A DNA stretch of 64,000 nt from a virus: IMG/VR virus record IMGVR_UViG_3300050821_003452, positions 1-64,000 of that record, one strand, 5' to 3'. Position numbers and translations under genes: made by a program. Numbering within the stretch: position 1 is the stretch's first letter; every line of letters starts with the position of its first letter. Below the pieces are notes generated by a model. That model was not told where the DNA came from. It worked only from the letters and a program-made list of their open reading frames with translations, and searched no databases. Shown piece by piece: positions 10,344 to 63,710 of the stretch.

Positions 10344-10352
10344 GTATTTTCC

Positions 10353-12244: not shown

Positions 12245-12369
12245 GGTTCCGGTTCTTTCAGCGAATTCAGCAGGGCGATATAAGCGGCAACCGCTGGATG
12301 TTTTTCCAGTTCCCTGATTGCCTTTAGGACTTCATGCACATTAGGTTGGGTCTGTTGCAAGATGGCCAT
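12217..12369 (-). CDS. Hypothetical 50-aa protein (below ORF-track cutoff)
   Basis: GAGGAAGG RBS then MAILQQTQPNVHEVLKAIRELEKHP...; fills the gap between genes. Confidence 0.5.
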   Translation of the reverse strand: MAILQQTQPNVHEVLKAIRELEKHPAVAAYIALLNSLKEPEPWPLQKHRD

Positions 12370-36376: not shown

Positions 36377-36837
36377 TCTCACGCTTGCTGGATTATATGG
36401 AGAAAATAGCCAACCCAAAAAAGGAAACTCCAGTGGCAAATATAAACTCATATTATGGCATTGCCGGCACTGCGCCACCGACAGTGCCGGCTGGTGGCAG
36501 CGGTACCTATTGTTCAACCGGCAGTGCTGGCATCAGTGCTGGCATTGCTTACCATCAGCATGCCCAAGTTAACAAGGTTAATGGCATGGGCCTTCCAATG
36601 TTCCCAAGCGGACAGGTGGTGACTATTTCCTTTCGCGATGCTTATGGTGTTATGTTCTCGCTGGCGGTTGATAGCACTGTTGTTACGTTGATGAACCATA
36701 TTGATGGTATCCATGGCATGGCATCAGCGCAGTTTACGCCTGTGACTAAATTCAAGATGAATGATGCAGATTTCTCCATCGATGAACTGGAGAAAGCCGA
36801 AAAGGTTATGGAAGAGTTGGGATATGAGCGAGCCTAG
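36373..36837 (+). CDS. Hypothetical protein with C-terminal tag
   Basis: ADFSIDELEKAEKVMEELG end. Confidence 0.65.
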   Translation: MISRLLDYMEKIANPKKETPVANINSYYGIAGTAPPTVPAGGSGTYCSTGSAGISAGIAYHQHAQVNKVNGMGLPMFPSGQVVTISFRDAYGVMFSLAVDSTVVTLMNHIDGIHGMASAQFTPVTKFKMNDADFSIDELEKAEKVMEELGYERA

Positions 36838-37306
36838 TCATACCAGACCCAAAATTGTCAAAGATACTTCTCCACTCTCCAACAATAGGCAGACGATAGG
36901 TCTGCGCATCAAATGGCTTCGCGCCCAGCAGAAGCCATACATGACACAAACGCAACTGGCACAATTGGCCAAGATTTCTCAGTATAGTGTAGCGCATCTG
37001 GAGCTTGGTCGGGGAACAGATTTTAGAATTAGCACGCTGCGGAAGATAGCCAACGCCTTGGGTTGCGAAGTCTACATCAACATAAAGTCGAGACCATCGA
37101 GGGCTGAAGGGGAGTGTATGGTTCCAAGTCTTGAGTTGCCGCGCCCTGTAAGACCGAAGACCAAAAGCACGGCGAGAGGCCGGTGGCTGGCCGCAAAATT
37201 CCAACGTTCTTTTCTGAAAAAGGATCACCCGCTCGAACGGTTTCAAGAACGTGTAGACTTTTACGCAGCGAAGCGTTTGGCGCGCGAGGCCGAGAAGGAC
37301 GAGTAG
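36824..37306 (+). CDS. XRE-family HTH regulator
   Basis: IG.RIK.LR....MTQ.QLA....ISQ..VA.LE.G......STL.KIA.ALG. Confidence 0.85.
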   Translation: MSEPSHTRPKIVKDTSPLSNNRQTIGLRIKWLRAQQKPYMTQTQLAQLAKISQYSVAHLELGRGTDFRISTLRKIANALGCEVYINIKSRPSRAEGECMVPSLELPRPVRPKTKSTARGRWLAAKFQRSFLKKDHPLERFQERVDFYAAKRLAREAEKDE

Positions 37307-38114
37307 AGTACCAAACATCCTTGCAGGCCGCGATCATCTGGCCAAATTCGACCGGCTCCATGCTGAAAGCAGCATCTGACCCGCCAATGGCGCGATCAAT
37401 AATGAAGTGCTTCTCGATTATAGAGGCCCCAAAGGATACCGCGCCGCAAGCAGTACCAATGCCAAGAGTATGATCACTAAAGCCAACCTCATGACGGCCT
37501 CCAAGTAAACTTTTCAGGGGTCCTAATGCCGGCAAATTGGTGCCTGCTGGGTCAGCAGGGTAGTCCGATACGCAATGCAGTAGTGCCAGATTGGACACTG
37601 ACGAGAGACTGCCGGCATTATAGGCATTGATGGCGTCGATGATTTCTCGGGAAGTGGCCATGCCTGTAGATATAATTACAGGAAGGCCTGTGCTTGCTGC
37701 GTAGCGTATAAGGGGCGTGTCTATTAACTCGAAACTACTAATCTTTAAAGCTATACTATCCAGACTTGAGACTAAATCGACACCAGAGAAGTCAAATACA
37801 GATGAAAATAGCGGTATATTCTTGGTCTTGGCGTATTTGAATAGCTCCCGAACCATGTCGGGAGGCGTTTCTGCTTCTTTATACAGATCAAATAGCCTTT
37901 TTCCCTTCCACAGACCGCTCTCCAATACATAACCATCGTTTGCACAGAGCTTTTCTGCTGTATAACACTGGATTTTGATGGCATCAGCGCCTACGTCCAT
38001 GGCTGCGTCCATGGTTTCGCATGCCGTCTTGACGCTACCGCCATGGTTGCTCGAAATTTCTGCCACTACATAGGGCAAATAGTCAGGACCGATCTCTCGA
38101 CTGCCTATTTTCAT
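37077..38114 (-). CDS. pseI: Pseudaminic acid/N-acylneuraminate synthase (NeuB/PseI family)
   Basis: VAEISSNHGG, GADAIKIQ, KISSFE, IISTGMA, LLHCVS.YPA, GFSDHTLG, IIEKHF; C-terminal SAF domain. Confidence 0.9.
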   Translation of the reverse strand: MKIGSREIGPDYLPYVVAEISSNHGGSVKTACETMDAAMDVGADAIKIQCYTAEKLCANDGYVLESGLWKGKRLFDLYKEAETPPDMVRELFKYAKTKNIPLFSSVFDFSGVDLVSSLDSIALKISSFELIDTPLIRYAASTGLPVIISTGMATSREIIDAINAYNAGSLSSVSNLALLHCVSDYPADPAGTNLPALGPLKSLLGGRHEVGFSDHTLGIGTACGAVSFGASIIEKHFIIDRAIGGSDAAFSMEPVEFGQMIAACKDVWYSTRPSRPRAPNASLRKSLHVLETVRAGDPFSEKNVGILRPATGLSPCFWSSVLQGAATQDLEPYTPLQPSMVSTLC

Positions 38115-38284
38115 TTTTCTAACTCACCCAGAAGCTTTGAAATCTTCTTATCGGCCTTACGGATGTTCCTGAGAACCATTTTAGTTCTAGTTGGAGCGCA
38201 ATTAATGGCGATTTCCAATATTTTCATCCATAGGTCATTGTTTCTAGCCCTAATTTCCTTGATCTTATATAGTTTTTTTCTCAT
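38111..38284 (-). CDS. 57-aa helical protein within sugar cluster (below ORF-track cutoff)
   Basis: MRKKLYKIKEIRARNNDLWMKILEIAINCAP...; ATGA-coupled on both sides. Confidence 0.65.
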   Translation of the reverse strand: MRKKLYKIKEIRARNNDLWMKILEIAINCAPTRTKMVLRNIRKADKKISKLLGELEK

Positions 38285-39360
38285 AGGGCATCTCTCAACT
38301 TGCTGACCATGGTGTTGATCTCTTCATCGGTTGGATCGAAAGCACATACCTCGAATAATACCATGCGATCTTCTACGTCTTCGACCGCAGGAAGCCAGAT
38401 TTGGCGCGACTTGAAGGCTTTCAATTCATAGAGCGGTCTCAAATAGCCGGCCCTGAATGGCTCAGGTATTGGTTTTCTTGGTTTGGTTCTTAATTGCGCT
38501 CCCCAGACGTAGTAACTATGGGTACATCCTTGTCTGATGGAAGGTGGTATAAGAACATCATTGGGCGGAATTAAGTCGGTGATCTTCTGAGCCAGAGCCA
38601 TCCTGCCGGCGATAATCTCTGGCGCTTTCTTAAGCTGCTCAATGGCCATAGCGGCAGTTATCTCCGTCATGCGCAGATTAAGGCCGGTTATGCCCCCGCG
38701 CATTTCGCCATGGTTCATGGCCTCTCTGAGCTTGGTATCAAGTGTATTACTTGCTGTGACGACTATTCCTCCCTCGCCAACCTGAAGATGCTTGTGGACG
38801 TTAAGGGAGAATACCCCCATATGGCCAATCGTGCCCGCATAGCGACCCTGCTCTTGAGCAAAAATCGACTGAGCATTGTCCTCAATGAGATAAACTCCAT
38901 GGTCATCACATATGGACCGCAATTCGTGAAGATGTGCGGCGTGGCCGAAAAGATTTGTGACGATCACTGCCTTGGTCTTTCGAGTAATCGAATTAGCCAC
39001 GTCCACGGGATCAAGCGTGTAGGTCTCTCTCTCGATATCGGCCCAGACCAGCGTGGCGCCAAGTACCTTGGGTGCTGCCGCTGTAGCAGACATAGTATAT
39101 GGCGAGACAATGACTTCATCGCCGGGACCAACCTCGATAGCCATACAGGCCGCAAGCAGCCCAGACGTGGCGCTATTAACGGCAACGGCATGTTTGATAT
39201 CGAAGGCTTTCTCCCAGCCTAACTCAAGTTCAGTTATGGCCCTTCCACCAGTTGGGTGTGAGCCGATATATCCAGAGAGCGGATAACCCTCAATAATATG
39301 ATCAGCCGCGCCACGCTCTGCATTCCCGATTGTATTGAAGCTCTTCATTATAGTTCTCAT
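38281..39360 (-). CDS. DegT/DnrJ/EryC1/StrS aminotransferase (PseC-like)
   Basis: VNSATSGL, IEDNAQS, FSLNVHKHLQVGEGG, GLNLRMTE. Confidence 0.9.
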   Translation of the reverse strand: MRTIMKSFNTIGNAERGAADHIIEGYPLSGYIGSHPTGGRAITELELGWEKAFDIKHAVAVNSATSGLLAACMAIEVGPGDEVIVSPYTMSATAAAPKVLGATLVWADIERETYTLDPVDVANSITRKTKAVIVTNLFGHAAHLHELRSICDDHGVYLIEDNAQSIFAQEQGRYAGTIGHMGVFSLNVHKHLQVGEGGIVVTASNTLDTKLREAMNHGEMRGGITGLNLRMTEITAAMAIEQLKKAPEIIAGRMALAQKITDLIPPNDVLIPPSIRQGCTHSYYVWGAQLRTKPRKPIPEPFRAGYLRPLYELKAFKSRQIWLPAVEDVEDRMVLFEVCAFDPTDEEINTMVSKLRDAL

Positions 39361-39493
39361 GTTTCAGGAAATTGGCTCTAGCATCCTGCATTGTTTTGCC
39401 ACTACCAAGACAGATGCCATAACGAAATCCGCAATACCAAATCTTGGTTTCTTCATCTTGGATGAAAACATATTTCGGCAGGAATTTAATCAT
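39302..39493 (-). CDS. Small hypothetical protein
   Basis: Coupled to the pseB stop; SGKT..DA..N pattern. Confidence 0.45.
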   Translation of the reverse strand: MIKFLPKYVFIQDEETKIWYCGFRYGICLGSGKTMQDARANFLKHENYNEELQYNRECRAWRG

Positions 39494-40413
39494 AGCGTAT
39501 CCCTTATCTCTTCCACTGAAAGAAAGCGCTCATTAGTATCGGATGAATATCTCATGCCGGGCTTGGTGTTATTCGTTGTATCCGGATTAAGGATATACCT
39601 ATCCCAGCTTTCGAGGGCCATATGGCTTTCATCGTCTGTGATCAGCGTCTCATGCAGCTTTTCTCCGGCCCGAATGCCGATCATGGAGTGATTACCGCCC
39701 GGGTCAATCGCCTCTACCAAGTCCATGATATGGACAGAGGGTATCTTGGGAACGAAAATCTCGCGGCCCTTCATCATGCTCTCTGAAGAAAGAACAAAGT
39801 CCACCGCCTCGTCCAGCGTCATCCAGAACCGTGTCATGCGCTGGTCGGTTATCGTGAGAGGTAGACCCCGAGCATGTAGGGATTTGAATAGGGGGACCAC
39901 ACTACCGCGACTGCCCACCACATTGCCGTACCGCACAACGCTGAACTGACACCGCCCAGCAGCCAGATTATTAGCGGCCACCATGATCTTTTCGGCTGCA
40001 AGCTTTGTCGCCCCATAGAGGTTAAGCGGGCTGACAGCCTTGTCGGTGGAAAGTGCGACAACTCGGCTAACACCAGTCGCCATCGCTGCCCTGCATACAT
40101 TTTCTGCCCCATGAATGTTGGTCATCACCGCTTCGAATGGATTATATTCGCAAGTCGGCACGATCTTCAGAGCCGCCGCGTGGACTACAAGATCGGCTCC
40201 ATACATGGCCATCTCAAGGCGCTTACGATCTCTTACGTCTCCTATGAAAAATCTCATGGCTGGATGATCAAAGTGATGCGCCATGGCCTCCTGAAGCTGC
40301 TCTCCGCGAGAATATATGATTATCTTGGCCGGTTCCATAGGAAGAACCTTGCGCACGAAGGCATTGCCGAAGGAGCCGCTGCCTCCGGTGATCAGGATAG
40401 TTTTACCTTTCAT
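39490..40413 (-). CDS. pseB: UDP-N-acetylglucosamine 4,6-dehydratase (inverting)
   Basis: ITGGSGSFG, FFIGDVRD, HAAALKIVP..EYNP, ALSTDKA, YGATK, VRYGNVVGSRGSV, MTRFW, GIRAGEKLHE. Confidence 0.92.
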   Translation of the reverse strand: MKGKTILITGGSGSFGNAFVRKVLPMEPAKIIIYSRGEQLQEAMAHHFDHPAMRFFIGDVRDRKRLEMAMYGADLVVHAAALKIVPTCEYNPFEAVMTNIHGAENVCRAAMATGVSRVVALSTDKAVSPLNLYGATKLAAEKIMVAANNLAAGRCQFSVVRYGNVVGSRGSVVPLFKSLHARGLPLTITDQRMTRFWMTLDEAVDFVLSSESMMKGREIFVPKIPSVHIMDLVEAIDPGGNHSMIGIRAGEKLHETLITDDESHMALESWDRYILNPDTTNNTKPGMRYSSDTNERFLSVEEIRDTL

Positions 40414-42380
40414 CGCACAGTTTTTCCCTTGATGACTTCACCTTCCAGTTTCACGCCGGCTGAAATGGCCTTGAGGGTGCTATCCCAAGCATAGATAACA
40501 CGATCCAATTCTGGCTTATTGTGGGCGTAGCAGGTATTATGAGACCCTATGATCAGCACGCCATTCTTGGCCATCTCCTGAATGAAGATGCTCTGAAGGT
40601 GTTTATCCCTGAACTTAATTCGGTTTAGTTCTGGACGTGAATATAACTCAATACCTTCGACACTATATTGCTTGATAAGCGTATTGATTTGTCCTCTGAG
40701 AACCTCTCCGACTGTAAATAATTTATCATGGACTTGGAGCGCGGTCAGCTTATCAATGGTGGCAATCGCTGCCGCAATCGAGAGCGTTTCCCCGAAGAAG
40801 GTCCCTGAATAAGAAATCTCAGGCATGCGCTTCATGTACTTCTCAAGACCTACAAGAGCGCTGATAGGCATGCCATTGGCCATGGCCTTGCCGAAGGTGG
40901 ACAGATCGGGCGTGACACCATATTCGCGCTGGAGCCCGCCCATTCCGCAGCGGAAGCCAGTTATGATTTCATCGAAGATCAGAATGATGCCGGCATGATC
41001 ACACTGCCGTCTTAGAAGCTCTAGCTCTTGTCGCGATTTGAACTCTGGCTCCAGTATAATAGCTGCCGGCTTTACGCTTTCGCTATCAAACATAAAGGCA
41101 TCAGGAATTGGCCTTGATAAGTTTTGCACATAACCCGGGATACCGTTAGTGTGCTCACTTACCGACATACTCCAATCGTGCCAACCATGATATCCCCCGA
41201 CATAGACCCTATCCCGCCCTGTAATATGTCTGGCAAGCCTTATGCCGGCAGTAGTCACGTCACTGCCGTTCTTGCCGAACCGAACCATTTCCGCAGATGG
41301 AATGTGGTAGTTTAGTTTCTCGGCAAGTTCCTCTTCCAGAGGCGTTGCCAATGAAAAAGAAATTCCTCGCGATAGTTGGTCCCGTATGGCTTGGTCAACG
41401 TCAGGGTCCCGATAACCAAGAACATTAGGCAGCAGGCCACCAACAAGGTCCACGTAGTCATGACCATCCACGTCGAACACATATCCACCATCTCCATGGG
41501 TTACGAAAAGGGGCGCCACCCCTTCAGGGAACATTAGCTTGGATTTACTGAAAGTCTGCGCTCCCAGAGGAATAAGATGTTCTGCCTGTTTTAGGCACTG
41601 GGCAGATACCTTGTATGAGCGCGTGGTTGTTTCCCGCTTCAGGTCTTCGTAAAATCTCTCATTGCGCGAGAGATGCGAGTTAAGGTCTCTCAGCGCAGGA
41701 TTAGCGGAGAGAACACCCAGAATATCCAGATAGCTGGGAGAATAATAAGAAACAGGTAGCAGATCGGAGACAGCTTGAATAAAAGCATAGTCTTCCGGAC
41801 TATCGAGTACCCACCTTTCCCTAACCAGATCAGGAAGCGGACACACCAGATTAACGGCGCTAAAACGATAACGGTTGCGCACCATAAAACGAGTGACAGT
41901 ATCACGATCAGTTCTGCGAATGGCCTCTTTATTGGATGCTTCAAGAATAGCCCTAGTAAAGACTTCCACGTCAAGGCCATCTGGGTAGCTGGGTGGGTCT
42001 GTGTTTGTGGCGTAGTCTGCATTCTTCATTTCCCTTAACTTGATGACTTCACCAATGACGCGCGGGTCCAGAAACGGACAGTCGCCAGTTAGCCTTACGA
42101 TAATGTCGGCATTATGTTGGTGCGCAGCCCCCAAGAACCGCGAGAGTACATCCGTCTCGGAGCCCCTGAAGACCGCAACACCTTTGGCAAGAGCCCACTC
42201 AACAATAGGATCGTCTTGCGGCAACGTCGAAGTCGCCACAACAACCTGATCCACGCCGGGGGATTGCTTGGCGGCTTCTACCACCCAATCTAGAACTGGT
42301 CTACCGCTTAAGTCTTTAAGAACCTTGCCGGGTAGTCTGGTACTGCCCATACGGGCTTGGCATATCGCGACTGTTTTCAT
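40410..42380 (-). CDS. SpsF-like cytidylyltransferase fused to class-III (GSA-like) aminotransferase
   Basis: QARMGSTRLPGKVL, RGSETDVL.R, R.TGDCP, YPDGLDVE; then GAQTFSKS, RFGKNGSD, IFDEIITGFR, FGKAMANG. Confidence 0.9.
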   Translation of the reverse strand: MKTVAICQARMGSTRLPGKVLKDLSGRPVLDWVVEAAKQSPGVDQVVVATSTLPQDDPIVEWALAKGVAVFRGSETDVLSRFLGAAHQHNADIIVRLTGDCPFLDPRVIGEVIKLREMKNADYATNTDPPSYPDGLDVEVFTRAILEASNKEAIRRTDRDTVTRFMVRNRYRFSAVNLVCPLPDLVRERWVLDSPEDYAFIQAVSDLLPVSYYSPSYLDILGVLSANPALRDLNSHLSRNERFYEDLKRETTTRSYKVSAQCLKQAEHLIPLGAQTFSKSKLMFPEGVAPLFVTHGDGGYVFDVDGHDYVDLVGGLLPNVLGYRDPDVDQAIRDQLSRGISFSLATPLEEELAEKLNYHIPSAEMVRFGKNGSDVTTAGIRLARHITGRDRVYVGGYHGWHDWSMSVSEHTNGIPGYVQNLSRPIPDAFMFDSESVKPAAIILEPEFKSRQELELLRRQCDHAGIILIFDEIITGFRCGMGGLQREYGVTPDLSTFGKAMANGMPISALVGLEKYMKRMPEISYSGTFFGETLSIAAAIATIDKLTALQVHDKLFTVGEVLRGQINTLIKQYSVEGIELYSRPELNRIKFRDKHLQSIFIQEMAKNGVLIIGSHNTCYAHNKPELDRVIYAWDSTLKAISAGVKLEGEVIKGKTVR

Positions 42381-43270
42381 ATTCCGGCCTTTGCTCTGAT
42401 TGCCATGACTGTGTAGAGCGCCCTTACGCCGTCTTCGCCGGTAGCCAGAGGCTCAAGGTGTCTTCCCTGTTGTATGCTATCCAGAAAGCACTTCATTTCG
42501 TCTATGTAATTATCATCCCATGTATCGCTGGCCTGAAACGCCATATGCGGCGGACCGCCACCCATTCGCATGTAGATTTCACGCAGAACAAGATTGACGT
42601 AGATCGACCCTTTTTCGCCCTCTATCCAGAAATATCGCTGCTCTGGGTCTGAGTAATAATCGGCTTGCAGATAGACGTTTCCTTTGACTTTGGGGAACTT
42701 CATCTCTACAAAGGCATCAGTAGTGTCGTTACCGTTACTGTCCACAGGGACAGACGCGGAAACTACATCTCCTTCTCCCAACAAATAGTGAGCTAGATCA
42801 ATCTCATGGCTGAGCCAGTTGCGAACGATGCCGTCCATCAAATATGGCGGCTTGGTTGTTTTTTGGTAAACCGTGAAGCTCGCGGCGAGAATGTTGCCGA
42901 TGGATGGAAGCAATTCCTTAGTCTTCTGGACGCAATGGTGGAACCGAAGATTAAAGCCAGTGGCGATGATCAGGCTGCGGTCCTTGTACCGAATGCCTTG
43001 CAAAAAACCATCGATTAACGGTGGGCAATCATAGCCGATTGGTTTCTCAACCAGCACATGCTTACCGGCATGAAGAACATCCATAAGATCATGAGCATGG
43101 ATTTTGCTGGGAGTGGCGATTACAATGGCATCTGCGTTTGTGAAAACATAGTCACGATACGAGGGCCGAGAAACTGATGGATCATATGCAACAAATTCAT
43201 GACCGAGAAACTCAATATTTAGAGCATGCCGCGTGCCAATAGAGCCATATCCTAGAATTCCAATTTTCAT
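42377..43270 (-). CDS. Gfo/Idh/MocA oxidoreductase
   Basis: GYGSIG.RH, IATP...H, VLVEKP, GFNLRFH, SHEID. Confidence 0.9.
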   Translation of the reverse strand: MKIGILGYGSIGTRHALNIEFLGHEFVAYDPSVSRPSYRDYVFTNADAIVIATPSKIHAHDLMDVLHAGKHVLVEKPIGYDCPPLIDGFLQGIRYKDRSLIIATGFNLRFHHCVQKTKELLPSIGNILAASFTVYQKTTKPPYLMDGIVRNWLSHEIDLAHYLLGEGDVVSASVPVDSNGNDTTDAFVEMKFPKVKGNVYLQADYYSDPEQRYFWIEGEKGSIYVNLVLREIYMRMGGGPPHMAFQASDTWDDNYIDEMKCFLDSIQQGRHLEPLATGEDGVRALYTVMAIRAKAGI

Positions 43271-43896
43271 TTCAGGTCCTCGACTGGCCATCCTGCGCTC
43301 AGGTCCTTCTTCAGTACCCAGATAGCGGTGTCTTTGTCGGGCTTGATCTTCTTCACCAACGAGTAGGCCGGATTGGCCAGCCAGAGCTTGGAGTAATCCA
43401 TCTTGTAAGAATAAGCGTCATCAAGGTGTTTATAGGGAACGCAATGAGGATGATCAGGATCAAAATCGTGGATGATCAAATACCCTCCATCCATCAATGC
43501 ATAGTCTCCGGTAGAAACTATTTGAGATAGATGATTTGGCTCACATAGATAGAGGCAAAACCCATAAATAATAATCCCGCATTCACCATACGGTTCTCGC
43601 GCGGTTCCAACTCTAAAGTGTAAGCTCGGAAACCTTATTGCGCCCGCCTCTATCGCGGCCCTTGATGGATCGCAGCCATAACATTCAGCGCCAGTTTTTA
43701 ATCTTATTTGCTCTAGTCTCCAGCCATTGGCGCAGCCGTATTCCAAGATATCTCCCCGAGACCACAGCTTAACTACAAGCTGCGCAATTTCGTCATCCGG
43801 CTTTTCCATTTTGTGGAAATTGCGATTGAACCATGCATCTGCCTCGCCTTTAAGAAAGGCTTCTTCCTGCTTGAGCATGAACGGAAACATTTTCAT
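43267..43896 (-). CDS. Class I SAM methyltransferase
   Basis: FL.GEADAWF.RN, ILEYGCANG, GCDPS..AI, GFCLYL, SYKMDY. Confidence 0.85.
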   Translation of the reverse strand: MKMFPFMLKQEEAFLKGEADAWFNRNFHKMEKPDDEIAQLVVKLWSRGDILEYGCANGWRLEQIRLKTGAECYGCDPSRAAIEAGAIRFPSLHFRVGTAREPYGECGIIIYGFCLYLCEPNHLSQIVSTGDYALMDGGYLIIHDFDPDHPHCVPYKHLDDAYSYKMDYSKLWLANPAYSLVKKIKPDKDTAIWVLKKDLSAGWPVEDLK

Positions 43897-44755
43897 TCTT
43901 GAGGATGATCATGAAGTTAGGCGAACACGCATAGAATTCACCAAATGTAGGCAATTGTGAGGCGATGGCATTGATCGGGTTATTATAATCCGGTTCTACG
44001 CCCTGATCTTGGCATATTTTAGCGTAGATCACCCGCGAAGCCATATAATACATATGGCCGATGTTCTCGACATACTCTTGGGTCAAAAGATGCCCTTGGA
44101 TTTGGGAGATGAACTTCTGGAATTCGGCCTGCGGGATATAAAAATTATGCCAGCGCTCCTTTATGGCCGGCAGTCCCAGCCTTCCTCTAACTGCGTTCAG
44201 GTTCTTCAGGCCCTCGTCTACGTTTTCTACTAAGATCATGCGGCCATCCTTGGAGAGTAGTTTTCGCATCTCCAAGATGCCGATCTTCTGTTCTTGCCAG
44301 TTAGCAAGATTGATCAGGCAGCGGGTAGATAAAACCACGTCAAAGGTGGCGCCCTGCAAGTGCCCATTTCTTGACAAAGAAAGTACATCGCCATCATAAT
44401 AATCAATATTAGGCGCCAGATTATGCCTGATGGCTTCATTGATCATCCCCTGTGAGAAATCCACCCCAATAATCTCTGCATCAGGAAAGGCCTTGGCGAG
44501 AGCCAGCGTGGTGTAGCCATTGCCGCAGCCAACATCCAGAATGGTGTCGTGCTTCAGGCTGCCGACCACATGCAGGATGCGTTCGACTTCAAGCTGGCGA
44601 TAATGATGATCAGGATTGGTAGCAAGATCAGAAGCGCCATGTTGTTTGGCCTGATCTTCCCAGAAGTCATGAACCGTTGCTGGTTGTTTCGGTTTGGGTG
44701 GCCTGCCCCGTTTTTTGGTTGATGGAGATAACTTTGGCTGTTCGGAACTTGCCAT
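43850..44755 (-). CDS. Class I SAM methyltransferase
   Basis: ILDVGCGNG, GVDFS.GMI, RCLINL..W..Q. Confidence 0.88.
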   Translation of the reverse strand: MASSEQPKLSPSTKKRGRPPKPKQPATVHDFWEDQAKQHGASDLATNPDHHYRQLEVERILHVVGSLKHDTILDVGCGNGYTTLALAKAFPDAEIIGVDFSQGMINEAIRHNLAPNIDYYDGDVLSLSRNGHLQGATFDVVLSTRCLINLANWQEQKIGILEMRKLLSKDGRMILVENVDEGLKNLNAVRGRLGLPAIKERWHNFYIPQAEFQKFISQIQGHLLTQEYVENIGHMYYMASRVIYAKICQDQGVEPDYNNPINAIASQLPTFGEFYACSPNFMIILKNENVSVHAQAGRSLS

Positions 44756-45257
44756 AGAGATGCATGTCCTGTGGTTGACCGCGAACAAGAAAATGCCCGT
44801 GGATGATGGCTTCGTGTGTGAATTGGAGCTTGTCTAGTATCCTGATCATGGCCTTGTTGTTTGCCATACAGCCAGCCTCAATCTTGCGAGTGCCGCTATC
44901 AAACAGATAATGAGAGATAGCTTCCCATGCCTCGCAACCAAGGCCTCGGCTCCAGTATTGCTTGACGCCGATCAGGATACCCATATTTGCGGTCTTGTTG
45001 TCAGCATCCCGAAAAGCAGATGCAGTACCAATATGGGTTCCGTCGAAATGGATATCCCAGAAATAGTTGTCACCGCTCTGAAAGGAACAGAGATATTCAT
45101 ACTGGGAAGCTTCAGTGTGTTTTCGGTGGCGCTGTTCAGAATACTGCATGACAACCGGGTCGTGTAGCCAGCGCAGGTAATTTGAAACATCCATCTTCTC
45201 GTACATGAACGGCGGCATCAGGGTGAGCCTAGCCGCCCTGAGCGTCGGTGTGGTCAT
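44667..45257 (-). CDS. GNAT N-acyltransferase (RimJ/RimL-like, PseH-like role)
   Basis: YLRWLHDP.V, HIG, MGILIG...W.RGLG, N.AM. Confidence 0.85.
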   Translation of the reverse strand: MTTPTLRAARLTLMPPFMYEKMDVSNYLRWLHDPVVMQYSEQRHRKHTEASQYEYLCSFQSGDNYFWDIHFDGTHIGTASAFRDADNKTANMGILIGVKQYWSRGLGCEAWEAISHYLFDSGTRKIEAGCMANNKAMIRILDKLQFTHEAIIHGHFLVRGQPQDMHLYGKFRTAKVISINQKTGQATQTETTSNGS

Positions 45258-45493
45258 TTTTTGGTGCGCCCGGCAGGATTTGAACCCACAACCCGGCGCT
45301 TATATGGCGCACGCTCTACCGTTGAGCTACGGGCGCTTGGATATGTCTGGATAGCGTGCTCGACCAAGCTCCGCATGTTCTTGAGAAGAAACACCATGTA
45401 GCGCGAGTTGGCATCGAAATCTCCCAAAGCTTCACGCTGGGAGATGACTTGTTCGACTTCGCCCTTGAAGGCTTGGAGTTGTTTTTTGTTCAT
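45254..45493 (-). CDS. Hypothetical protein whose 3' end overlaps a tRNA
   Basis: ATGA-coupled on both sides. Confidence 0.5.
   Translation of the reverse strand: MNKKQLQAFKGEVEQVISQREALGDFDANSRYMVFLLKNMRSLVEHAIQTYPSARSSTVERAPYKRRVVGSNPAGRTKK
45262..45336 (-). tRNA. Atypical tRNA, anticodon UAU (Ile), A at position 33
   Basis: GCGCCCG acceptor; GCTC/GAGC D-stem; GCGC-CATATAA-GCGC anticodon arm; GTGGG-TTCAAAT-CCTGC T-arm; encoded ACCA. Confidence 0.75.
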
Positions 45494-45699
45494 GGTTTCT
45501 TTAACGAGCGATCTGCATCATGACCCCGGGGCCCTCTTCCAATGTGAAGCATCGCGCATTCTGGGCAGATATAAACGCCGACTTTTGCCGGATTGCCGCG
45601 CTTCCTATTTCTCCACGTCAACTTATTCGCTTCCTTTTCTGCTTGGTCGAAGCTGGAGAAGGCGATCTTGCCGCGCTCATGGCATCTAGGTCCGCTCAT
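45490..45699 (-). CDS. Small zinc-binding phage protein
   Basis: C...GK..F....A....YICPEC...HIG. Confidence 0.65.
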   Translation of the reverse strand: MSGPRCHERGKIAFSSFDQAEKEANKLTWRNRKRGNPAKVGVYICPECAMLHIGRGPRGHDADRSLKKP

Positions 45700-45711
45700 G
45701 ACTTTCTCAAT

Positions 45712-46263
45712 TTAACAAGAACACGAAAAGGTATTGGGCTTGTGCAGCACTTTATGGCCCAGAACAACCTCAACATGATCCCAAAACTCAGGCGGGATTG
45801 AGGCGTGGCCATCCATGTCATAAAGACTGAAATAATCGGCATCAATCCTAATGTTGGGATTATGGCCCTTGATGCCCTCTATGACGGTCTCATAGCCGGG
45901 GCAGTCATTGTTATTACAGAAATCCCGCAGCCAAGCTTCTGACGTGGCTTTGTTATAGCCAAGCTCTGGCTCGCCTTTGAACGCTGGGTGGGTCCAGTCA
46001 TGGCGCAGCGACGTGATGGTGTTCGGGTTGACGAACATCCAGAAGCGGTCGCCGGGATTGACGGGCTTTTTCAGGAAAGGGTCCACGATGCCAACAGACA
46101 GCGGCCATGGACATATATCGACCGTGATTTGATCGTCGTCTACAAAAGTAATAGGCGTGCCGGGACTTAGCATGCGCTTGGCAATAACAGGAGCCACCGC
46201 AACGTGAATAGCATCGCGCGGTTCATTACCAGTCCTCAGTTGACCGACTTCAGTGTTAGACAT
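45712..46263 (-). CDS. Conserved phage hypothetical protein
   Basis: RDAIHVAV.PV, GIVDPFL, P.TITSLRH.W.HPAF, FSCSC. Confidence 0.75.
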   Translation of the reverse strand: MSNTEVGQLRTGNEPRDAIHVAVAPVIAKRMLSPGTPITFVDDDQITVDICPWPLSVGIVDPFLKKPVNPGDRFWMFVNPNTITSLRHDWTHPAFKGEPELGYNKATSEAWLRDFCNNNDCPGYETVIEGIKGHNPNIRIDADYFSLYDMDGHASIPPEFWDHVEVVLGHKVLHKPNTFSCSC

Positions 46264-46281: not shown

Positions 46282-46369
46282 TGGCGGGGAGAGTAGGATT
46301 TGAACCCACGGAATCTTGCGGTTCTCTCGTTTTCAGGACGAGCGCGATAAGCCTCTCTGCCATCTCCCC
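46282..46369 (-). tRNA. tRNA-Ser(UGA), C at position 33
   Basis: GGGGAGA acceptor; CTCGT-CCTGAAA-ACGAG anticodon arm; long variable arm; GTGGG-TTCAAAT-CCTAC T-arm; GCCA end. Confidence 0.88.
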
Positions 46370-55053: not shown

Positions 55054-55677
55054 GTGACCAACACAATGGCACCGTTTGGTTTCCGGCAGTTCCGTCGCCT
55101 TGATGGCGGCGCCCCGACTGCTGGCTTTGACACGCTGACCATCGCGTCCAGCGATACCAACCTCTATTTCACGGGCGATCCGGTCGCAACTTCGACCACA
55201 GGCCCGTATGTCACCACACTTTCAACCGTACAAGTGCTGGTGCGCGGCATCTTCTTTGGTTGCGAATTCTTCAGCCCGACTTTCAACCGCAAAACTTGGT
55301 CGCCGTTCTTTCCGGGCTCTGTCCAGACTTCATCTGGCACCAATGACGCTCAGGCGTGGGTCTGCACTGACCCCGATATGATGTATACGGTTCAGTGTTC
55401 ATCGATTGCCCAAGTCACGTCATCCATGATCGGCCTGAACACCGGCCCGAACATGAGCATCGCGCTGCTTTCTTCTCAGGGCAACCAGACCACGGGCGTT
55501 TCCGTGACAACCTTGTCCACGGTAGCGACGACTAACTCTTCCGCACCCTTCCGCATCATGGACTTGTATTCCAACTGGGCGCCTCCGGGCGTCAATGGCA
55601 CGGACAATACCAACGTGGGCAACATCGTGATTGTTGCGCCCAATAACTTCGACCGCAAGAATACCACCGGCATCTAA
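55054..55677 (+). CDS. Putative capsid decoration/structural protein
   Basis: APFGFR, FTGDPV, G.F.GC, V.TDP...Y.VQ; directly before major capsid. Confidence 0.65.
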   Translation: MTNTMAPFGFRQFRRLDGGAPTAGFDTLTIASSDTNLYFTGDPVATSTTGPYVTTLSTVQVLVRGIFFGCEFFSPTFNRKTWSPFFPGSVQTSSGTNDAQAWVCTDPDMMYTVQCSSIAQVTSSMIGLNTGPNMSIALLSSQGNQTTGVSVTTLSTVATTNSSAPFRIMDLYSNWAPPGVNGTDNTNVGNIVIVAPNNFDRKNTTGI

Positions 55678-55689
55678 GGAGTAATCTAA

Positions 55690-56604
55690 ATGCCCGTCGC
55701 ACTAGCTCAAATTCGTGACTTGCTTCTTCCCGGCCTGTGGGGCGTGAGTGGCAAGTACGAGCAGATCGAGCGTCAGTGGTCCAAGTTGTTTAAGACCACG
55801 GACAGCAAGATGGCGCTAGAGCGCCGGGCGTCCATGCGCTATCTGGGCCTCGCCCAGCTTAAGCAGGAAGGCGGCGTTACTGCCTTCGACAATTCAGCCG
55901 GCGAGCGGTATGTTTATAACCAAGAACACAACGAAATCGGTCTGGGTTATGCCATCACCCGCAAAGCCATTGATGACAACCTCTACAAGGCAGAGTTTGG
56001 ACCATCCAACGATGGTTTGATGGCCTCTTTCCAGCAGACGGAAGAGATATACGGCGCCAACGTGTTCAATACTGGCACCACGTTCAATGCGAACGTGGGC
56101 GGCGATGGTGTGGCACTTTACTCAACTGCGCACCCGATTGACGGCAATACCATCGGCAATCGTCCGACCACCGATCAGGACTTGAACGAGACTTCGCTGC
56201 TGAACGCCGGCATTTCCGTGCGCTCGACTTGGCGAGACAACGCTAATCTGAAGATTTACGCTCGCGCCAAGAAGACGATTATTCCGACCCAGCTTGAGCC
56301 GATTGCGCTACGCCTGTTCAGATCAGAGCTTCGTCCGGGCACGGCAGACAACGATGTTAACGCCATCCTTGGAATGAACGATAGCTTCAAGGAAGGCTTT
56401 ATCGTTAACGACTATCTGACAAGCTCGTTTGCTTGGTTCTTGCTGACCAACGTGGACGGCCTGATCTACATGAACCGTATCCCGTTTGAGATGGACATGA
56501 GCGTGGAGTTCACGACTGATAACCTGCTGGTCAAGGGTTATCAGCGTTATAGCTTCGGCTATTTCGACTGGCGATCCACGTATGGGAACTTTCCTACGAG
56601 CTAA
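55690..56604 (+). CDS. Major capsid protein
   Basis: LLPGL..G, GLA..K.EG, LGYAITRKAIDDNLY, GGDGVAL.STAHP, GTADND.NA, RYSFG..DWR..YG. Confidence 0.9.
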   Translation: MPVALAQIRDLLLPGLWGVSGKYEQIERQWSKLFKTTDSKMALERRASMRYLGLAQLKQEGGVTAFDNSAGERYVYNQEHNEIGLGYAITRKAIDDNLYKAEFGPSNDGLMASFQQTEEIYGANVFNTGTTFNANVGGDGVALYSTAHPIDGNTIGNRPTTDQDLNETSLLNAGISVRSTWRDNANLKIYARAKKTIIPTQLEPIALRLFRSELRPGTADNDVNAILGMNDSFKEGFIVNDYLTSSFAWFLLTNVDGLIYMNRIPFEMDMSVEFTTDNLLVKGYQRYSFGYFDWRSTYGNFPTS

Positions 56605-56615
56605 GGAACAGGAAA

Positions 56616-57575
56616 ATGGTTCTCATAACCAACACCGGCCCTATTGTTGCGTTTGGTATTACTCGCGACAGCAACGGCAATGTTACGCAGTACAATGAAG
56701 AGCGTGGCACTTCGCTTTACGATCTTGGCACAGGATTTGCGGACCCGCGCATTCCATATGCTTATAAACCCGGCTCCGCAGTCGGCACTCCTATTGTTGG
56801 GTTCTTCGATAATCTGGGGCTAGTGGATTACATTCCAGCTACCGCCTCTAGCAATGCTCTTGTTAGCAACGGCTCTAGCACTGTTAACGGCTCACTTACA
56901 CTGACCGCAACTGGTGCCGGCGTGATTGCCACGACTATTGTGGCACCAGAGAGCGGTCAGACTGTTACTGTATTTGCTCTAGACAGCACTGCGGCAACCC
57001 TTCCTATGGGTCAGGCCGGCACGGTCCAACTTTGGAACCCCGCCGCTGGTGCGGGCCGTTGTATTTCTGTTACGGCTTCTTCCAGCGGCAGCACTGGCGC
57101 CACGGTCAGCATCGCTGGCCGCGATATGTACGGCATCAAGATGACTGAGTTGGTTACGCTCAGCACGGCAACTGCGCCCGCAGTTGGAACCAGCCAGAAA
57201 GCGTTCAAATATATCTCGTCCATCACGGCATCCACCACGTTCACTGCTGGTTTCATTGTGGGCACCACGGACACCTTCGGCTTCCCGTTGAAGCTGGCAT
57301 ATTGCGGTGTCAGCACCGTGGTTAATCTATTGGCCTCGTCCTTTTCTTCTGCTGTTGCCGTCGCACTTTCTTCCGCCTCAACCACGTTGGCGTCAACGGC
57401 TACTACGTCAAACTCTACCAATGGTGACGTGCGAGGTACTTATGCTTCCACAACTGCATCCAACGGAACCTTGCGGTTTCAAATAGTCCAGAATATGACT
57501 GCCAACCAGATGGCGGCTATCACCAGCACCAACCACGCTTCTGTGTTTGGTATTCCTCAGTTTAGCTCAGTGTAA
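56616..57575 (+). CDS. Ser/Thr-rich virion structural protein
   Basis: G.D.YG..MTE, KAFKYI, GTTD.FG.P, TNGDVRGTY. Confidence 0.7.
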   Translation: MVLITNTGPIVAFGITRDSNGNVTQYNEERGTSLYDLGTGFADPRIPYAYKPGSAVGTPIVGFFDNLGLVDYIPATASSNALVSNGSSTVNGSLTLTATGAGVIATTIVAPESGQTVTVFALDSTAATLPMGQAGTVQLWNPAAGAGRCISVTASSSGSTGATVSIAGRDMYGIKMTELVTLSTATAPAVGTSQKAFKYISSITASTTFTAGFIVGTTDTFGFPLKLAYCGVSTVVNLLASSFSSAVAVALSSASTTLASTATTSNSTNGDVRGTYASTTASNGTLRFQIVQNMTANQMAAITSTNHASVFGIPQFSSV

Positions 57576-57584
57576 GGAGACCAT

Positions 57585-57884
57585 TTGATGGCCAAGCACA
57601 GGCACGAAAAGCACAAAAAAGAGCATGAGAAGAAGGAACACTTCAAGCGTGGCGGGCACGTCAAGCTGGATGCCAAGGACGACCTCAAGGGCGCCGATGA
57701 CTACTCTGGTAGCGGCAAGCCGGAAGTAGTGAAAGCTGCCGAGAGCCGTAAGGATAGCTTCAAGAAGGGCGGCAAGGTTATGGGCCACAAGTCCAAGGCC
57801 CGCATGGACAAATATGCCCGTGGCGGTCGCGCTGGCGGGTCCCCGTTCTCGTCTGCCAAGATCAAGGAAAATACGGCGGCTTAA
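57585..57884 (+). CDS. Small basic protein with three xxGG motifs
   Basis: FKRGGHV, FKKGGKV, YARGGRA. Confidence 0.65.
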   Translation: MMAKHRHEKHKKEHEKKEHFKRGGHVKLDAKDDLKGADDYSGSGKPEVVKAAESRKDSFKKGGKVMGHKSKARMDKYARGGRAGGSPFSSAKIKENTAA

Positions 57885-57886
57885 CC

Positions 57887-58069
57887 ATGGCCAAGAATTG
57901 GATAAAGGGAGCTATCAAACATCCCGGGGCTTTGCATAGTCATCTGGGTGTTCCGCAAGGTCAGAAAATTCCTGCATCCAAGCTTGCGAAGGCAAGTCAT
58001 TCATCTAATCCGACTATTAAGCGCGAAGCCGCTCTTGCCAAGACCTTGAAGGGCTTCCACCACAAGTAA
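57887..58069 (+). CDS. Small basic conserved phage protein
   Basis: WIKGAIKHPGALH..LGV..G.KIP..KL.KA....A.LAKTL. Confidence 0.7.
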   Translation: MAKNWIKGAIKHPGALHSHLGVPQGQKIPASKLAKASHSSNPTIKREAALAKTLKGFHHK

Positions 58070-58080
58070 GGAAGCTCTTG

Positions 58081-58422
58081 ATGCCTATGATGCCGGTCTA
58101 CATTACCCTGAGTTCGACCGGAACCTCACGGGCGGTCAATCTCGACTATAATTCCAGAAGTCCATTCAATGTCTCCGTTGGTGTGACTTACGGCTCCAGC
58201 ACCATGACGGCGACCTATGGCGTGGAATACACGCTTCAGGACCCGCTCTATCAGAGCCTAATTGGCTCGACTGCCGCGCAAATCTGGATCGCGGACGCCA
58301 ATCTTCCTGCCGGCCAGACCGCGACCGGTACCACCAATTATATGTTTCCTGTGGCGGCTGTGCGCTGCACAGTAAGCGCAATCTCGTCTGGCTCAGTGAC
58401 CTTCTGCGTGATGGAAGGATAA
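58081..58422 (+). CDS. Putative virion structural protein
   Basis: VEYT.QD...FPV.AVR beta-rich pattern. Confidence 0.6.
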   Translation: MPMMPVYITLSSTGTSRAVNLDYNSRSPFNVSVGVTYGSSTMTATYGVEYTLQDPLYQSLIGSTAAQIWIADANLPAGQTATGTTNYMFPVAAVRCTVSAISSGSVTFCVMEG

Positions 58423-58429
58423 CTGATGC

Positions 58430-58663
58430 ATGGCGGTTTCCCTTACAGGCATAACGGTCACGCTGCCATCGGTGGGCGTATCTTTAACTCCGACGACGCT
58501 TCAGTTACCATGGGGAGCGGTGTCTGAGAGTTTGTTGCTGACTGTGAGTATACCGGGATCGACTACTGGAGGATCAACAAGTAGTTCCAGTCCAACGCAT
58601 ACACTGATCTTCACTGGTTCCTCTAACTCGATGTATATTCCCTTGATGGGAGGCTTTGGCTAA
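58430..58663 (+). CDS. Ser/Thr-rich small structural protein
   Basis: L.F..S.NSMYIP C-terminus. Confidence 0.55.
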   Translation: MAVSLTGITVTLPSVGVSLTPTTLQLPWGAVSESLLLTVSIPGSTTGGSTSSSSPTHTLIFTGSSNSMYIPLMGGFG

Positions 58664-59501
58664 CGTGGCAGATAATTATACGGTAATAAATTCCTGCGGC
58701 CAGACCATCACGATGAAGTCCATCGATATCGGCGGTGGGGTGGAAACTATTCAATCCATCCCAACCTCTACTGCTGGGACACCGCTTGTACTGAACCCAT
58801 CCAGTACGCCTACCAGCACCATGGCGGCGATGTTGGTGGCCATCTCTCCTAATGGAGTAAACGCCAACGGCCAAGCGACAATGGCCAACTCGGCTCCTGT
58901 TACGATTGCCAGCAATCAGAGCGCTGTGGCGGTTAGCCTGTCTTCGGCTACCGTTACTTTATCCAGCAATCCAACAGTAATTCTATCGAGCAACCCCACG
59001 GTTATTCCATCATCTGCGATACAAGTTACCCTGACAAGCAATGTGGTCGCCGTATCCTCTGGAACAGTAACTCTCTCATCCAACCCAACAGTCATTCCAT
59101 CCAGCGCCCTTACCGTTGGCTCTGGAAATATTTCATTGGTGCCAACCACCACGGGTGGGCTTTCGCTATCTTCTGTAATCATAGCGAGCGGGACCAATTC
59201 CACGCTGGTTAGCTCGTCCCCCAGACAAATCTACAAGGTGGAGTGTTTCAATAACACGGCCACCATCGGTTATCTGCATCTCTACAATCTATCCAGCGCG
59301 CCAACCGCTGGTAGTTCTCTTGTATTCGATAGATATCTGGTTCCGGCCAACACCAGTGGCGCAGGCGTCATCTCGGAACTTGTCAATGGCGTGTCATATG
59401 CGACGGGGATTGGATATACCTTTACTGGAGGTATTGCAGATAGCGATACCACGGCCATCTCTTCAAATGCTTCCTATATCGTGAATATTTACTATAAGTG
59501 A
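58656..59501 (+). CDS. Ser/Thr-rich structural protein with V(T/I)LSSNPTVI repeats
   Basis: GQATMANSAPV.IASNQS; three V.LSSNPTVI repeats. Confidence 0.7.
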   Translation: MANVADNYTVINSCGQTITMKSIDIGGGVETIQSIPTSTAGTPLVLNPSSTPTSTMAAMLVAISPNGVNANGQATMANSAPVTIASNQSAVAVSLSSATVTLSSNPTVILSSNPTVIPSSAIQVTLTSNVVAVSSGTVTLSSNPTVIPSSALTVGSGNISLVPTTTGGLSLSSVIIASGTNSTLVSSSPRQIYKVECFNNTATIGYLHLYNLSSAPTAGSSLVFDRYLVPANTSGAGVISELVNGVSYATGIGYTFTGGIADSDTTAISSNASYIVNIYYK

Positions 59502-59509
59502 GCATGTAA

Positions 59510-63660: not shown

Positions 63661-63710
63661 ATCGGACTTGCACCGATAGAGGTTTATATATCGAAAATGG
63701 TAATCAATAT

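Follow-up and report, generated by a model that had tools for sequence, protein, structure and literature searches.

A phage-borne cassette for a predicted pseudaminic acid-type nonulosonate and a co-occurring sialyltransferase-like candidate

Organization of the cassette

The virus record IMGVR_UViG_3300050821_003452 of IMG/VR comprises 76,589 bp and is rated 100% complete; the stretch analyzed here (the window) is its first 64 kb. Between window positions 37077 and 45257, the minus strand carries a cassette of eight enzyme genes that points to the synthesis of a nonulosonic acid of the pseudaminic acid (Pse) type. In the direction of transcription, these encode a GNAT acetyltransferase, two methyltransferases (MT2 and then MT1), a Gfo/Idh/MocA oxidoreductase (GFO), a fusion of a cytidylyltransferase with a class-III aminotransferase (CT::AT3), PseB, a DegT-family aminotransferase, and a NeuB-family synthase. 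ATGA start/stop overlaps at seven gene junctions indicate translational coupling. Open reading frame (ORF) calls, together with Pfam and NCBIfam searches, place all eight enzymes where a first-pass annotation, made from the letters alone, had put them. In order of window coordinate, the enzyme genes are the following:

37077..38114, minus strand: nonulosonate synthase, PseI-like, 345 amino acids (aa) (PF03102, TIGR03586)
38281..39360, minus strand: DegT/DnrJ/EryC1 sugar aminotransferase, 359 aa, candidate for the PseC step (PF01041)
39490..40413, minus strand: PseB, UDP-GlcNAc inverting 4,6-dehydratase, 307 aa (TIGR03589)
40410..42380, minus strand: fusion of an SpsF-type cytidylyltransferase with a class-III aminotransferase (CT::AT3), 656 aa (PF02348 and PF00202)
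42377..43291, minus strand: Gfo/Idh/MocA NAD(P) oxidoreductase (GFO), 304 aa (PF01408, PF02894, PF22725)
43267..43896, minus strand: methyltransferase 1 (MT1), 209 aa (borderline PF13489)
43850..44755, minus strand: methyltransferase 2 (MT2), about 301 aa from the ATG at 44755, with the ORF opening at a TTG at 44788 (PF13649, PF13847)
44667..45257, minus strand: GNAT N-acetyltransferase, 196 aa, candidate for the PseH step (PF13302)

Core enzymes of the pathway

PseB scores 421.7 bits against the NCBIfam equivalog TIGR03589, above the cut-off of 407.75, and matches Helicobacter pylori FlaA1 (2gn4) with an E value of 6e-100. The catalytic STDKA (D-K) and YGATK (Y-x-x-x-K) motifs are aligned between the two and kept in the relatives. 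The synthase matches PF03102 with 227.5 bits; it reaches 310.8 bits with the PseI model TIGR03586, under the cut-off of 340.25, and 239.5 bits with NeuB_NnaB. Its best solved relative is Campylobacter jejuni PseI (8h2c, E value of 1e-55), followed by SpsE, and its SDHT and EKH motifs are retained in the relatives. The Pse-type assignment proposed in the first-pass annotation is thus borne out at equivalog level for PseB, while for the synthase PseI is the best-matching model at a score below its cut-off.

The other members of the core set are identified by class. The DegT aminotransferase matches PF01041 with 213.6 bits, and its best NCBIfam model is PseC (TIGR03588), at 161.6 bits versus a cut-off of 423.5; among its solved relatives, other sugar aminotransferases stand well ahead of H. 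pylori PseC (2fn6). Its pyridoxal phosphate (PLP) lysine motif, NVHK, is present in all nine relatives compared (9/9). The GNAT protein scores 64.7 bits with PF13302 and 20.4 bits with the PseH model TIGR03585 (cut-off of 93.1), and the cytidylyltransferase domain scores 35.6 bits with the PseF model TIGR03584 (cut-off of 205.7). In each enzyme, the motifs for cofactor binding and catalysis are kept across 7 to 10 divergent phage homologues; the loss of catalytic residues, which had been named as something that would speak against the pathway, was checked for, and the motifs are intact.

The fusion protein, the oxidoreductase, and the methyltransferases

The fusion protein consists of a cytidylyltransferase at residues 1 to ~240 (PF02348, 102 bits) and a class-III PLP aminotransferase at residues ~250 to 656 (PF00202, 146 bits). 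The first domain is of the SpsF type (solved relative 6oew, residues 1 to 230, 117.7 bits), and the solved relatives of the second are glutamate-1-semialdehyde (GSA) aminomutases and aminoglycoside C-6' aminotransferases. CT::AT3 is the most conserved gene of the cassette, with 51 to 74% identity across phages, and its motifs ARMGSTRLPGK, IFDEI, and FGKAMANG (with the PLP lysine) are near-invariant. The GFO gene overlaps the CT::AT3 gene by ATGA, and the pair is conserved together in all cassette-bearing phages. GFO gives weak matches to the NCBIfam models of inositol 2-dehydrogenase and UDP-GlcNAc 3-dehydrogenase, inositol dehydrogenases and YjhC, a sialic-acid enzyme, are among its solved relatives, and its GxGxxG, EKP, and HExD motifs occur in 10/10 homologues. 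By Pfam, the cassette contains no short-chain dehydrogenase/reductase (SDR) or aldo-keto reductase besides PseB. Since the DegT enzyme consumes the ketone made by PseB, the second aminotransferase needs another carbonyl, and GFO is the only other dehydrogenase.

Precedents for such a block exist in bacteria. ElaA, a Gfo/Idh/MocA protein, has been proposed from structures to oxidize C8 of the CMP-legionaminic acid made by the cytidylyltransferase ElaB, after which ElaC reduces the product (PMC13656337). The prophage protein EpaA is a CTP_transf_3 domain fused to an aldo-keto reductase, and together with EpaB it turns Pse into 8-epi-Pse (PMC12053666). A GSA-aminomutase-like gene lies between PseG and a cytidylyltransferase in a Legionella O-antigen cluster (PMC3694923), and an 8-amino-pentadeoxy-nonulosonate is known from the O-antigen of Flexibacter (Tenacibaculum) maritimus (PMC3210612). 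A search of the PDB found no detectable sequence similarity between GFO and ElaA. Of the epimerized or methylated derivative suggested in the first-pass annotation, the general idea of tailoring gains support from the Ela/Epa analogy and stays conditional, and the cassette has no SDR or aldo-keto partner that would re-reduce the ketone to give an epimer.

MT1 is a borderline match to PF13489 (27.7 bits) with a conserved S-adenosylmethionine motif, E-x-G-C-x-x-G, and also occurs in G001 and G002, two distant phages that bear the cassette. MT2 matches PF13649 with 64.4 bits and PF13847 with 60 bits and has a conserved DVGCGNG motif; it is limited to a close subclade and absent from L103 to L107 and L131.

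A scan of genome contigs brought up mainly HemL and other ordinary class-III aminotransferases, which carry no information here; one contig (L011) has an adjacent GFO gene. The only cellular homologue found with the CT::AT3 fusion, at 43% identity, lies on an alphaproteobacterial contig from a metagenome-assembled genome (L010). Positions 1 to 13000 of this contig form a nonulosonate locus comprising two NeuB genes, a CTP_transf_3 gene that stands alone, DegT, a formyltransferase, the fusion of cytidylyltransferase and aminotransferase, and an adjacent aldo/keto reductase, as well as a PtmE-like nucleotidyl (NTP) transferase with CBS domains and a HisF/HisH-like pair.

Steps missing from the cassette

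Searches of the complete genome in six frames gave no match at an E value of ≤1 for PseG (TIGR03590), GT28 (PF04101), or a NeuC-type epimerase (PF02350), nor for the glycosyltransferase (GT) families GT2 (PF00535), GT1 (PF00534), and Glyco_trans_1_2 (PF13524); the Maf model (PF01973) gave one faint match, to the gene at genome positions 64444 to 65319 described below. Pfam recognized no sugar enzyme among ~40 further ORFs of at least 120 aa. The cassettes of the relatives likewise contain no gene for a PseG-type hydrolase, a NeuC-type epimerase, or a GT; the extra ORFs within or beside them encode HNH endonucleases, a metallophosphatase, and an SLOG protein, and two matched no family. The first-pass annotation was therefore correct that no PseG or recognizable glycosyltransferase is visible in the window, and a sialyltransferase-like gene lies just outside it. 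Extending the search to the rest of the genome, as it had suggested, yielded this Maf-like gene (64444-65319) and was negative for PseG, GT1, GT2, and GT28. The gap in the release of UDP could be filled by the host, implying a Pse-making host, or by a phage enzyme that was not recognized; release by the Gfo/Idh/MocA protein via transient oxidation is speculation.

The cassette is a resident module of a phage clade

The genome encodes the hallmarks of a tailed phage, namely, a large terminase (TerL), a portal, a major head protein, and two SU10-type adaptors, which bears out its phage origin. The two ends of the record have 11 bases in common (window positions 1 to 11 and genome positions 76579 to 76589), and an ORF for an ejection protein of ~990 aa crosses their junction; the nominally linear record is thus a circularly closed assembly. 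A six-frame search of the complete genome found no match at an E value of ≤1 to an integrase (PF00589) or a resolvase (PF00239). The cassette belongs to a clade of ~73- to 77-kb podophage-like soil phages, which are probably virulent. Searches of GenBank found no match among phages for the cassette nucleotide sequence and no cultured close relative for the CT::AT3 fusion or TerL proteins. The best TerL match is an uncultured member of the Caudoviricetes (42%). The nearest cultured relatives of TerL have mostly alphaproteobacterial hosts, which, together with the alphaproteobacterial origin of L010, gives the only hints to the host. NeuB matches occur in only 3 of 50,697 GenBank phage records, none of them a cultured phage.

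In the six IMG/VR contigs that were found with the fusion protein, the cassette adjoins TerL in the same gene order. When 80 TerL relatives were compared in a FastTree tree, all those with at least 53% identity and enough flanking sequence carried the cassette, and these relatives formed one 13-member clade with a support of 100. Two more carriers, L131 (the same phage as G002) and L116, are placed among cassette-less phages, so that at least three gains or losses of the cassette are needed. Its synteny beside TerL recurs in at least 15 independent metagenome assemblies. The core of GNAT, MT1, GFO, CT::AT3, PseB, DegT, and NeuB is retained down to 39% TerL identity, with MT1 missing in L106; MT2 and a 79-aa ORF are additions of the close subclade. 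The guanine-plus-cytosine (GC) fractions of cassette and genome in four phages are 0.497/0.508, 0.508/0.512, 0.487/0.506, and 0.614/0.606, and the GC content of third codon positions also tracks the genome. Logan contigs from the one run that contains the sequence, a soil metagenome that is probably its source, tile and bridge both borders of the cassette at an even depth of 5.4 to 8.7×.

The proposal that the cassette is integrated rather than freshly captured is strongly borne out by the TerL synteny, the matching GC content, and the even depth at both borders: the cassette is a resident module and not chimeric. An assembly chimera or host contamination was considered and is ruled out for practical purposes by the number of assemblies, the GC content, the uniform depth, the contigs crossing the borders, and phage-type HNH insertions, and nothing was found in its favor. 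The chimeric host insertion that read mapping might have exposed is refuted by the independent Logan contigs across both borders. The HNH_3 homing endonuclease genes lie inside the cassette and flank CT::AT3 at L004:11890-12441, L005:9489-9998, and L008:9498-10004. A metallophosphatase gene stands between TerL and the cassette in L007, and L009 has an ORF with an SLOG domain.

A Maf/Cst-II-like protein tied to the cassette

Protein P0121, of 291 aa, is encoded at genome positions 64444 to 65319 (L003:4445-5320), 444 bases past the end of the window and inside the virion module. ORF presence was compared between this genome and the cassette-bearing G005, G001, and G002, on the one hand, and the complete cassette-less relatives G003 and G004, on the other; the P0121 gene is the only noncassette ORF present in all the cassette-bearing genomes and in no cassette-less genome. 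It occurs in 5/5 complete cassette-bearing genomes versus 0/5 complete cassette-less relatives. Twelve further complete phage genomes were found through the P0121 family, and these contain CTP_transf_3 in 12/12 cases and NeuB in 11/12. In three of them (two of 85 to 87 kb and one of 67 kb), the cytidylyltransferase stands alone and the architecture differs. Genome G026 (the source of L207; 75,040 bp, with terminal repeats) has the CT::AT3 fusion and the transferase-like gene and shows no NeuB match at an E value of ≤1e-5; its synthase may have been lost or replaced.

An AlphaFold (AF2) model of P0121, built from 24 homologues, has a core with a predicted local distance difference test (pLDDT) score of >85, preceded by a disordered N terminus of ~60 residues; one long helix makes up the C terminus. 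The top Foldseek matches of the model are Campylobacter Cst-II and Cst-I, with E values of 5e-6 to 1e-4 and a probability of 1.00 for Cst-II. In VIA-align, the Magnetospirillum Maf protein 5mu5 aligns with a Z score of 11.6 over 156 residues (root mean square deviation of 3.0), and Cst-I and Cst-II align with Z scores of 10.3 to 10.8 at 20 to 23% identity. The alignment with Maf (632 residues) covers only residues 60 to 228 of P0121 and the central Maf domain, and P0121 has no counterpart of the Maf flanking domains.

The family profile, compared with the PDB, gave GT42 sialyltransferases as 8 of its 9 best subthreshold matches, all on the TS...G(I/V)D motif. Near its N terminus, P0121 has the motif I-G-T-A-P-S-S, which resembles G-N-G-P-S-L of Cst-II. 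Faint PF01973 matches occur in 6 of 24 homologues, and there is one faint CST-I match among 52. A metagenomic protein of 492 aa (P0382) is a natural fusion of an N-terminal SpsF-type cytidylyltransferase, 51% identical to the cytidylyltransferase domain in the window (E value of 3e-46), with a C-terminal P0121-type domain. The family comprises 4,296 clusters at 50% identity, carries no annotation, and is viral as far as taxa are recorded. Together, the model and these matches suggest that P0121 is a candidate sialyltransferase-like enzyme, with a predicted function in the transfer of CMP-linked nonulosonates.

Surroundings of the transferase-like gene

The P0121 gene lies in a late operon, translationally abutting a Ser/Thr-rich ORF of 121 aa. 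Around it, over ~10 kb, the ORFs have 22 to 36% Ser+Thr, against 13.7% genome-wide. About a dozen such Ser/Thr-rich ORFs, from window positions 55054 to 64000 and on to genome position 66000, surround the genes of the major head protein and the transferase-like protein; the major head protein itself has 13.8% Ser+Thr. Acceptors on the virion are favored over host flagellin because of the position in the late operon, the Ser/Thr-rich surroundings, and the lack of the domains that flank the catalytic domain in flagellin Mafs. The most likely acceptors would be the Ser/Thr-rich virion proteins around P0121.

Proposed pathway and alternative readings

The pathway would start with PseB, which is assigned by sequence to the conversion of UDP-GlcNAc into a UDP-4-keto-6-deoxy-L-sugar. 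The DegT enzyme would aminate C4, and the GNAT protein would acetylate the resulting amine. The UDP would then be removed in a PseG-type step that is not phage-encoded and would fall to a host enzyme or an unrecognized one, after which the PseI-like synthase, whose role is well supported, would join the hexose with phosphoenolpyruvate. The SpsF-type domain would form the CMP-sugar. GFO may then oxidize a hydroxyl of the side chain or ring, at C8 by analogy with ElaA, and the fused aminotransferase may turn the ketone into an amine; from the bacterial precedents, we favor C8 as the position of the CMP-sugar that is oxidized and transaminated, with C4 as a less likely site. MT1, together with MT2 in the close subclade, would methylate the product, and P0121 would transfer the sugar from CMP to Ser/Thr residues of acceptor proteins in the cytoplasm.

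On balance, we consider it probable, by a modest measure, that the resident cassette is functional and makes a tailored CMP-Pse-type nonulosonate, and that P0121 moves this sugar to Ser/Thr residues of proteins, most likely those of the virion; the product, the acceptor, and the host are all deduced indirectly. Among the uses envisaged in the first-pass annotation, which were glycosylation of the virion, remodeling of host receptors, and hypermodification of DNA, protein glycosylation is now favored because a transferase-like gene co-occurs with the cassette, and the DNA option found no support. A more specific form of the proposal is offered tentatively, as less likely than not: a widespread, as yet uncultured group of tailed phages would coat its own virions with a phage-made triamino (8-amino), N-/O-methylated Pse-type sugar by means of a minimal, virus-specific Maf/GT42-like transferase, and CT::AT3 with GFO would be the missing biosynthetic route to amino-substituted nonulosonates such as that of the Tenacibaculum maritimum O-antigen.

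Several observations weigh against the main interpretation. The scores of the DegT, GNAT, and cytidylyltransferase proteins miss the cut-offs of the PseC, PseH, and PseF equivalogs by a wide margin, and without PseG the phage alone is unable to complete the canonical route. The site and even the kind of chemistry carried out by GFO and the class-III domain are deduced indirectly, and enzymes with the class-III fold can be mutases or epimerases, just as Gfo/Idh/MocA proteins can act redox-neutrally (YjhC type, GH109 type). P0121 scores 11.2 bits with PF01973 (Maf), against a gathering threshold of 34.6, and does not reach the gathering threshold of PF06002 either, and thiamin pyrophosphokinase (TPK) and HPPK, pyrophosphokinases of the same superfold, align with its model in VIA-align with Z scores of 10.5 and 9.8. 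The co-occurrence counts are not phylogenetically independent and represent at least two, perhaps three or more, lineages. Ser/Thr richness is common in fiber and decoration proteins and is equally high in the tail-fiber orthologue of a cassette-less phage, and most of the other Ser/Thr-rich proteins have no orthologue for comparison there.

The CMP-sugar could instead be placed on host flagellin, lipopolysaccharide (LPS), or capsule by the phage Maf-like protein or by host transferases, where it would block superinfection or the adsorption of progeny to infected cells and debris. Characterized Maf enzymes do glycosylate flagellin in the cytoplasm and are promiscuous for their donors (PMC11339370; bioRxiv 10.1101/2020.06.03.131540), capsular Pse is altered by the prophage-encoded Epa enzymes (PMC12053666), and the absence of PseG points to a host with Pse synthesis of its own. 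However, lysogenic conversion is unlikely because no integrase or resolvase was found, the transferase gene stands in the late virion operon and not among early genes, and P0121 (291 versus 632 aa) is without the N- and C-terminal domains of the flagellin Mafs, so that we regard remodeling of the host surface as unlikely. P0121 might also be a kinase resembling MptE or TPK, or a structural protein, with the cassette product used by host enzymes or the cassette only boosting or diverting the UDP-GlcNAc and nonulosonate metabolism of the host. Its Z scores with the pyrophosphokinases are close to that with Cst-II (10.6), it reaches no Pfam threshold, and the fold alone does not separate the modeled protein as a sialyltransferase from a pyrophosphokinase. 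What speaks against a kinase is that Foldseek puts sialyltransferases ahead of TPK by ~100-fold in E value, that the Cst-II and Maf alignments have higher identity and greater length than those of the pyrophosphokinases, that the subthreshold sequence matches of the family fall on the GT42 motif only, that a P0121-type domain is naturally fused to a domain making CMP-sugars, and that the family is tightly tied to cytidylyltransferase and NeuB genes; this explanation seems to us distinctly improbable.

Attachment of the nonulosonate or an intermediate to phage DNA or tRNA as a protection against restriction has only circumstantial points in its favor: a probably virulent phage keeps the cassette, and a pair of tRNA genes adjoins it. 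Among the ORFs of at least 120 aa, none belonged to a family of DNA polymerases, base-modifying enzymes, or DNA glycosyltransferases, the fold of P0121 is that of sialyltransferases acting on proteins and oligosaccharides, and we know of no nonulosonate-DNA adduct. Hypermodification of nucleic acids is therefore very improbable.

Relation to known systems

The cassette resembles the bacterial CMP-Pse pathway of Campylobacter and Helicobacter (PseB-PseC-PseH-PseG-PseI-PseF) in its equivalog-level PseB, in a synthase closest to C. jejuni PseI, and in having DegT, GNAT, and CTP_transf_3 proteins that fill remaining enzyme classes. Unlike that pathway, it is phage-encoded, lacks PseG, has divergent members in the PseC, PseH, and PseF roles, with an SpsF-type domain fused to a class-III aminotransferase, and contains an additional dehydrogenase and one or two methyltransferases. 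The SpsF protein of Bacillus subtilis is dispensable for the synthesis of legionaminic acid and required for its transfer, which fits a role in CMP activation (PMC7439481). SpsF is the prototype of the cytidylyltransferase domain in the window and SpsE the second-best solved relative of the phage synthase, whereas the sps genes belong to a cellular legionaminic acid route that includes the PseG-like SpsG and has no aminotransferase fusion.

With ElaABC (8-epi-legionaminic acid) and the prophage EpaAB (8-epi-pseudaminic acid) of Acinetobacter baumannii, the cassette shares the pairing of a cytidylyltransferase with side-chain redox enzymes, as a fusion in EpaA; GFO belongs to the same Gfo/Idh/MocA superfamily as ElaA, and the Epa genes are also phage-borne. 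In those systems, the epimer arises when the ketone is reduced again by an SDR or an aldo-keto reductase, whereas the partner in the phage is an aminotransferase, which predicts an amino sugar; and while Ela and Epa need a full host pathway, this phage carries most of the pathway itself. P0121 is like Maf and the GT42 enzymes Cst-I and Cst-II in the predicted fold of its catalytic domain, its N-terminal G-x-x-P-S and TS...G(I/V)D motifs, and its genomic tie to CMP-nonulosonate synthesis. It differs from them in its length of 291 aa, the lack of the Maf flanking domains, scores under the Pfam thresholds, and a family that is apparently restricted to viruses.

For the O-glycosylation of mycobacteriophage virions, work attributed to Freeman et al. 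(2023; cited in PMC12691614) reportedly describes phage transferases of ordinary GT families that are encoded in or near the structural genes and use nucleotide sugars made by the host. The present phage is similar in having its transferase-like gene among structural genes and in the proposed cytoplasmic glycosylation of virion proteins; it differs in that the sugar pathway is also phage-encoded and the sugar is a nonulosonate. Phages bind or cleave nonulosonates or, as prophages, tweak them, and to our knowledge none is known to build them. A literature search of incomplete coverage turned up no description of a nonulosonate synthase pathway encoded by a phage.

The elements of the system are of known kinds (Pse pathway, Ela/Epa tailoring, Maf/GT42 transfer, and virion glycosylation) and do not make a new category. 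What the present analysis adds is the conservation of the cassette across a clade, a mechanistic analogy for the tailoring block, and a co-inherited transferase candidate: a whole clade of probably virulent phages keeps a nearly full pathway, a tailoring block, and a dedicated transferase-like gene. If the proposal is correct, virion glycosylation would extend from mycobacteriophages using host sugars to an acidic sugar synthesized by the phage, and an unannotated family of viral proteins, with over 4,000 clusters at 50% identity, would gain a function. A compact transferase core of ~230 residues would then be available for glyco-engineering, and the biosynthesis of amino-substituted nonulosonates would be testable with a handful of recombinant enzymes.

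Small ORFs, tRNA genes, and flanking features

The remaining features of the cassette and its upstream flank are the following:

38111..38284, minus strand: small helical ORF, 57 aa, kept in relatives, with ATGA coupling on both sides
39302..39493, minus strand: lineage-specific small ORF, 63 aa, a doubtful gene with no family match or homologue
45254..45493, minus strand: small ORF, 79 aa, of which residues 1 to 52 are kept in relatives
45262..45336, minus strand: tRNA-Ile (anticodon UAU), found by ARAGORN
46282..46369, minus strand: tRNA-Ser (anticodon UGA), found by ARAGORN

The first-pass annotation had described phage-type small ORFs and tRNAs as interleaved with the enzyme genes. Of the small ORFs between the enzyme genes, the 57-aa ORF is conserved, as tblastn matches it at the corresponding place in L005, L006, L008, and L009; the 63-aa ORF is not, since Pfam and NCBIfam gave no family match for it and tblastn no homologue in the relatives. 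Neither tRNA gene is interleaved among the enzymes, as both lie upstream of them. The tRNA-Ile(UAU) gene ends 5 nucleotides (nt) ahead of the GNAT start codon. The 79-aa ORF reads through this gene, its last 27 codons being the tRNA, and its residues 1 to 52 are matched by tblastn upstream of the GNAT gene in all six of the first relatives. The tRNA-Ser(UGA) gene heads the leftward transcription unit, divergent from the terminase gene; the promoter-like site at 46429-46400 on the minus strand is a consensus match only.

The MT2 gene shares 89 to 122 nt with the 3' end of the GNAT gene, read in another frame, an overlap that is retained in L004, L006, and L008. At the other end of the cassette, a gene for a Cro/C1-type helix-turn-helix (HTH) protein (window positions 36761 to 37306, plus strand) runs toward the synthase gene, and the two share 230 nt at the 3' end of the latter. 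All relatives examined have a convergent overlap of ~75 to 140 nt at this place, and the arrangement of the HTH and synthase genes may provide antisense or termination control of the cassette. Finally, a minor contig from the same soil run (depth of 2.6 versus ~7) replaces the 222 nt at window positions 45494 to 45715 by CAG; this variant drops a 69-aa ORF and represents a coexisting phage variant.

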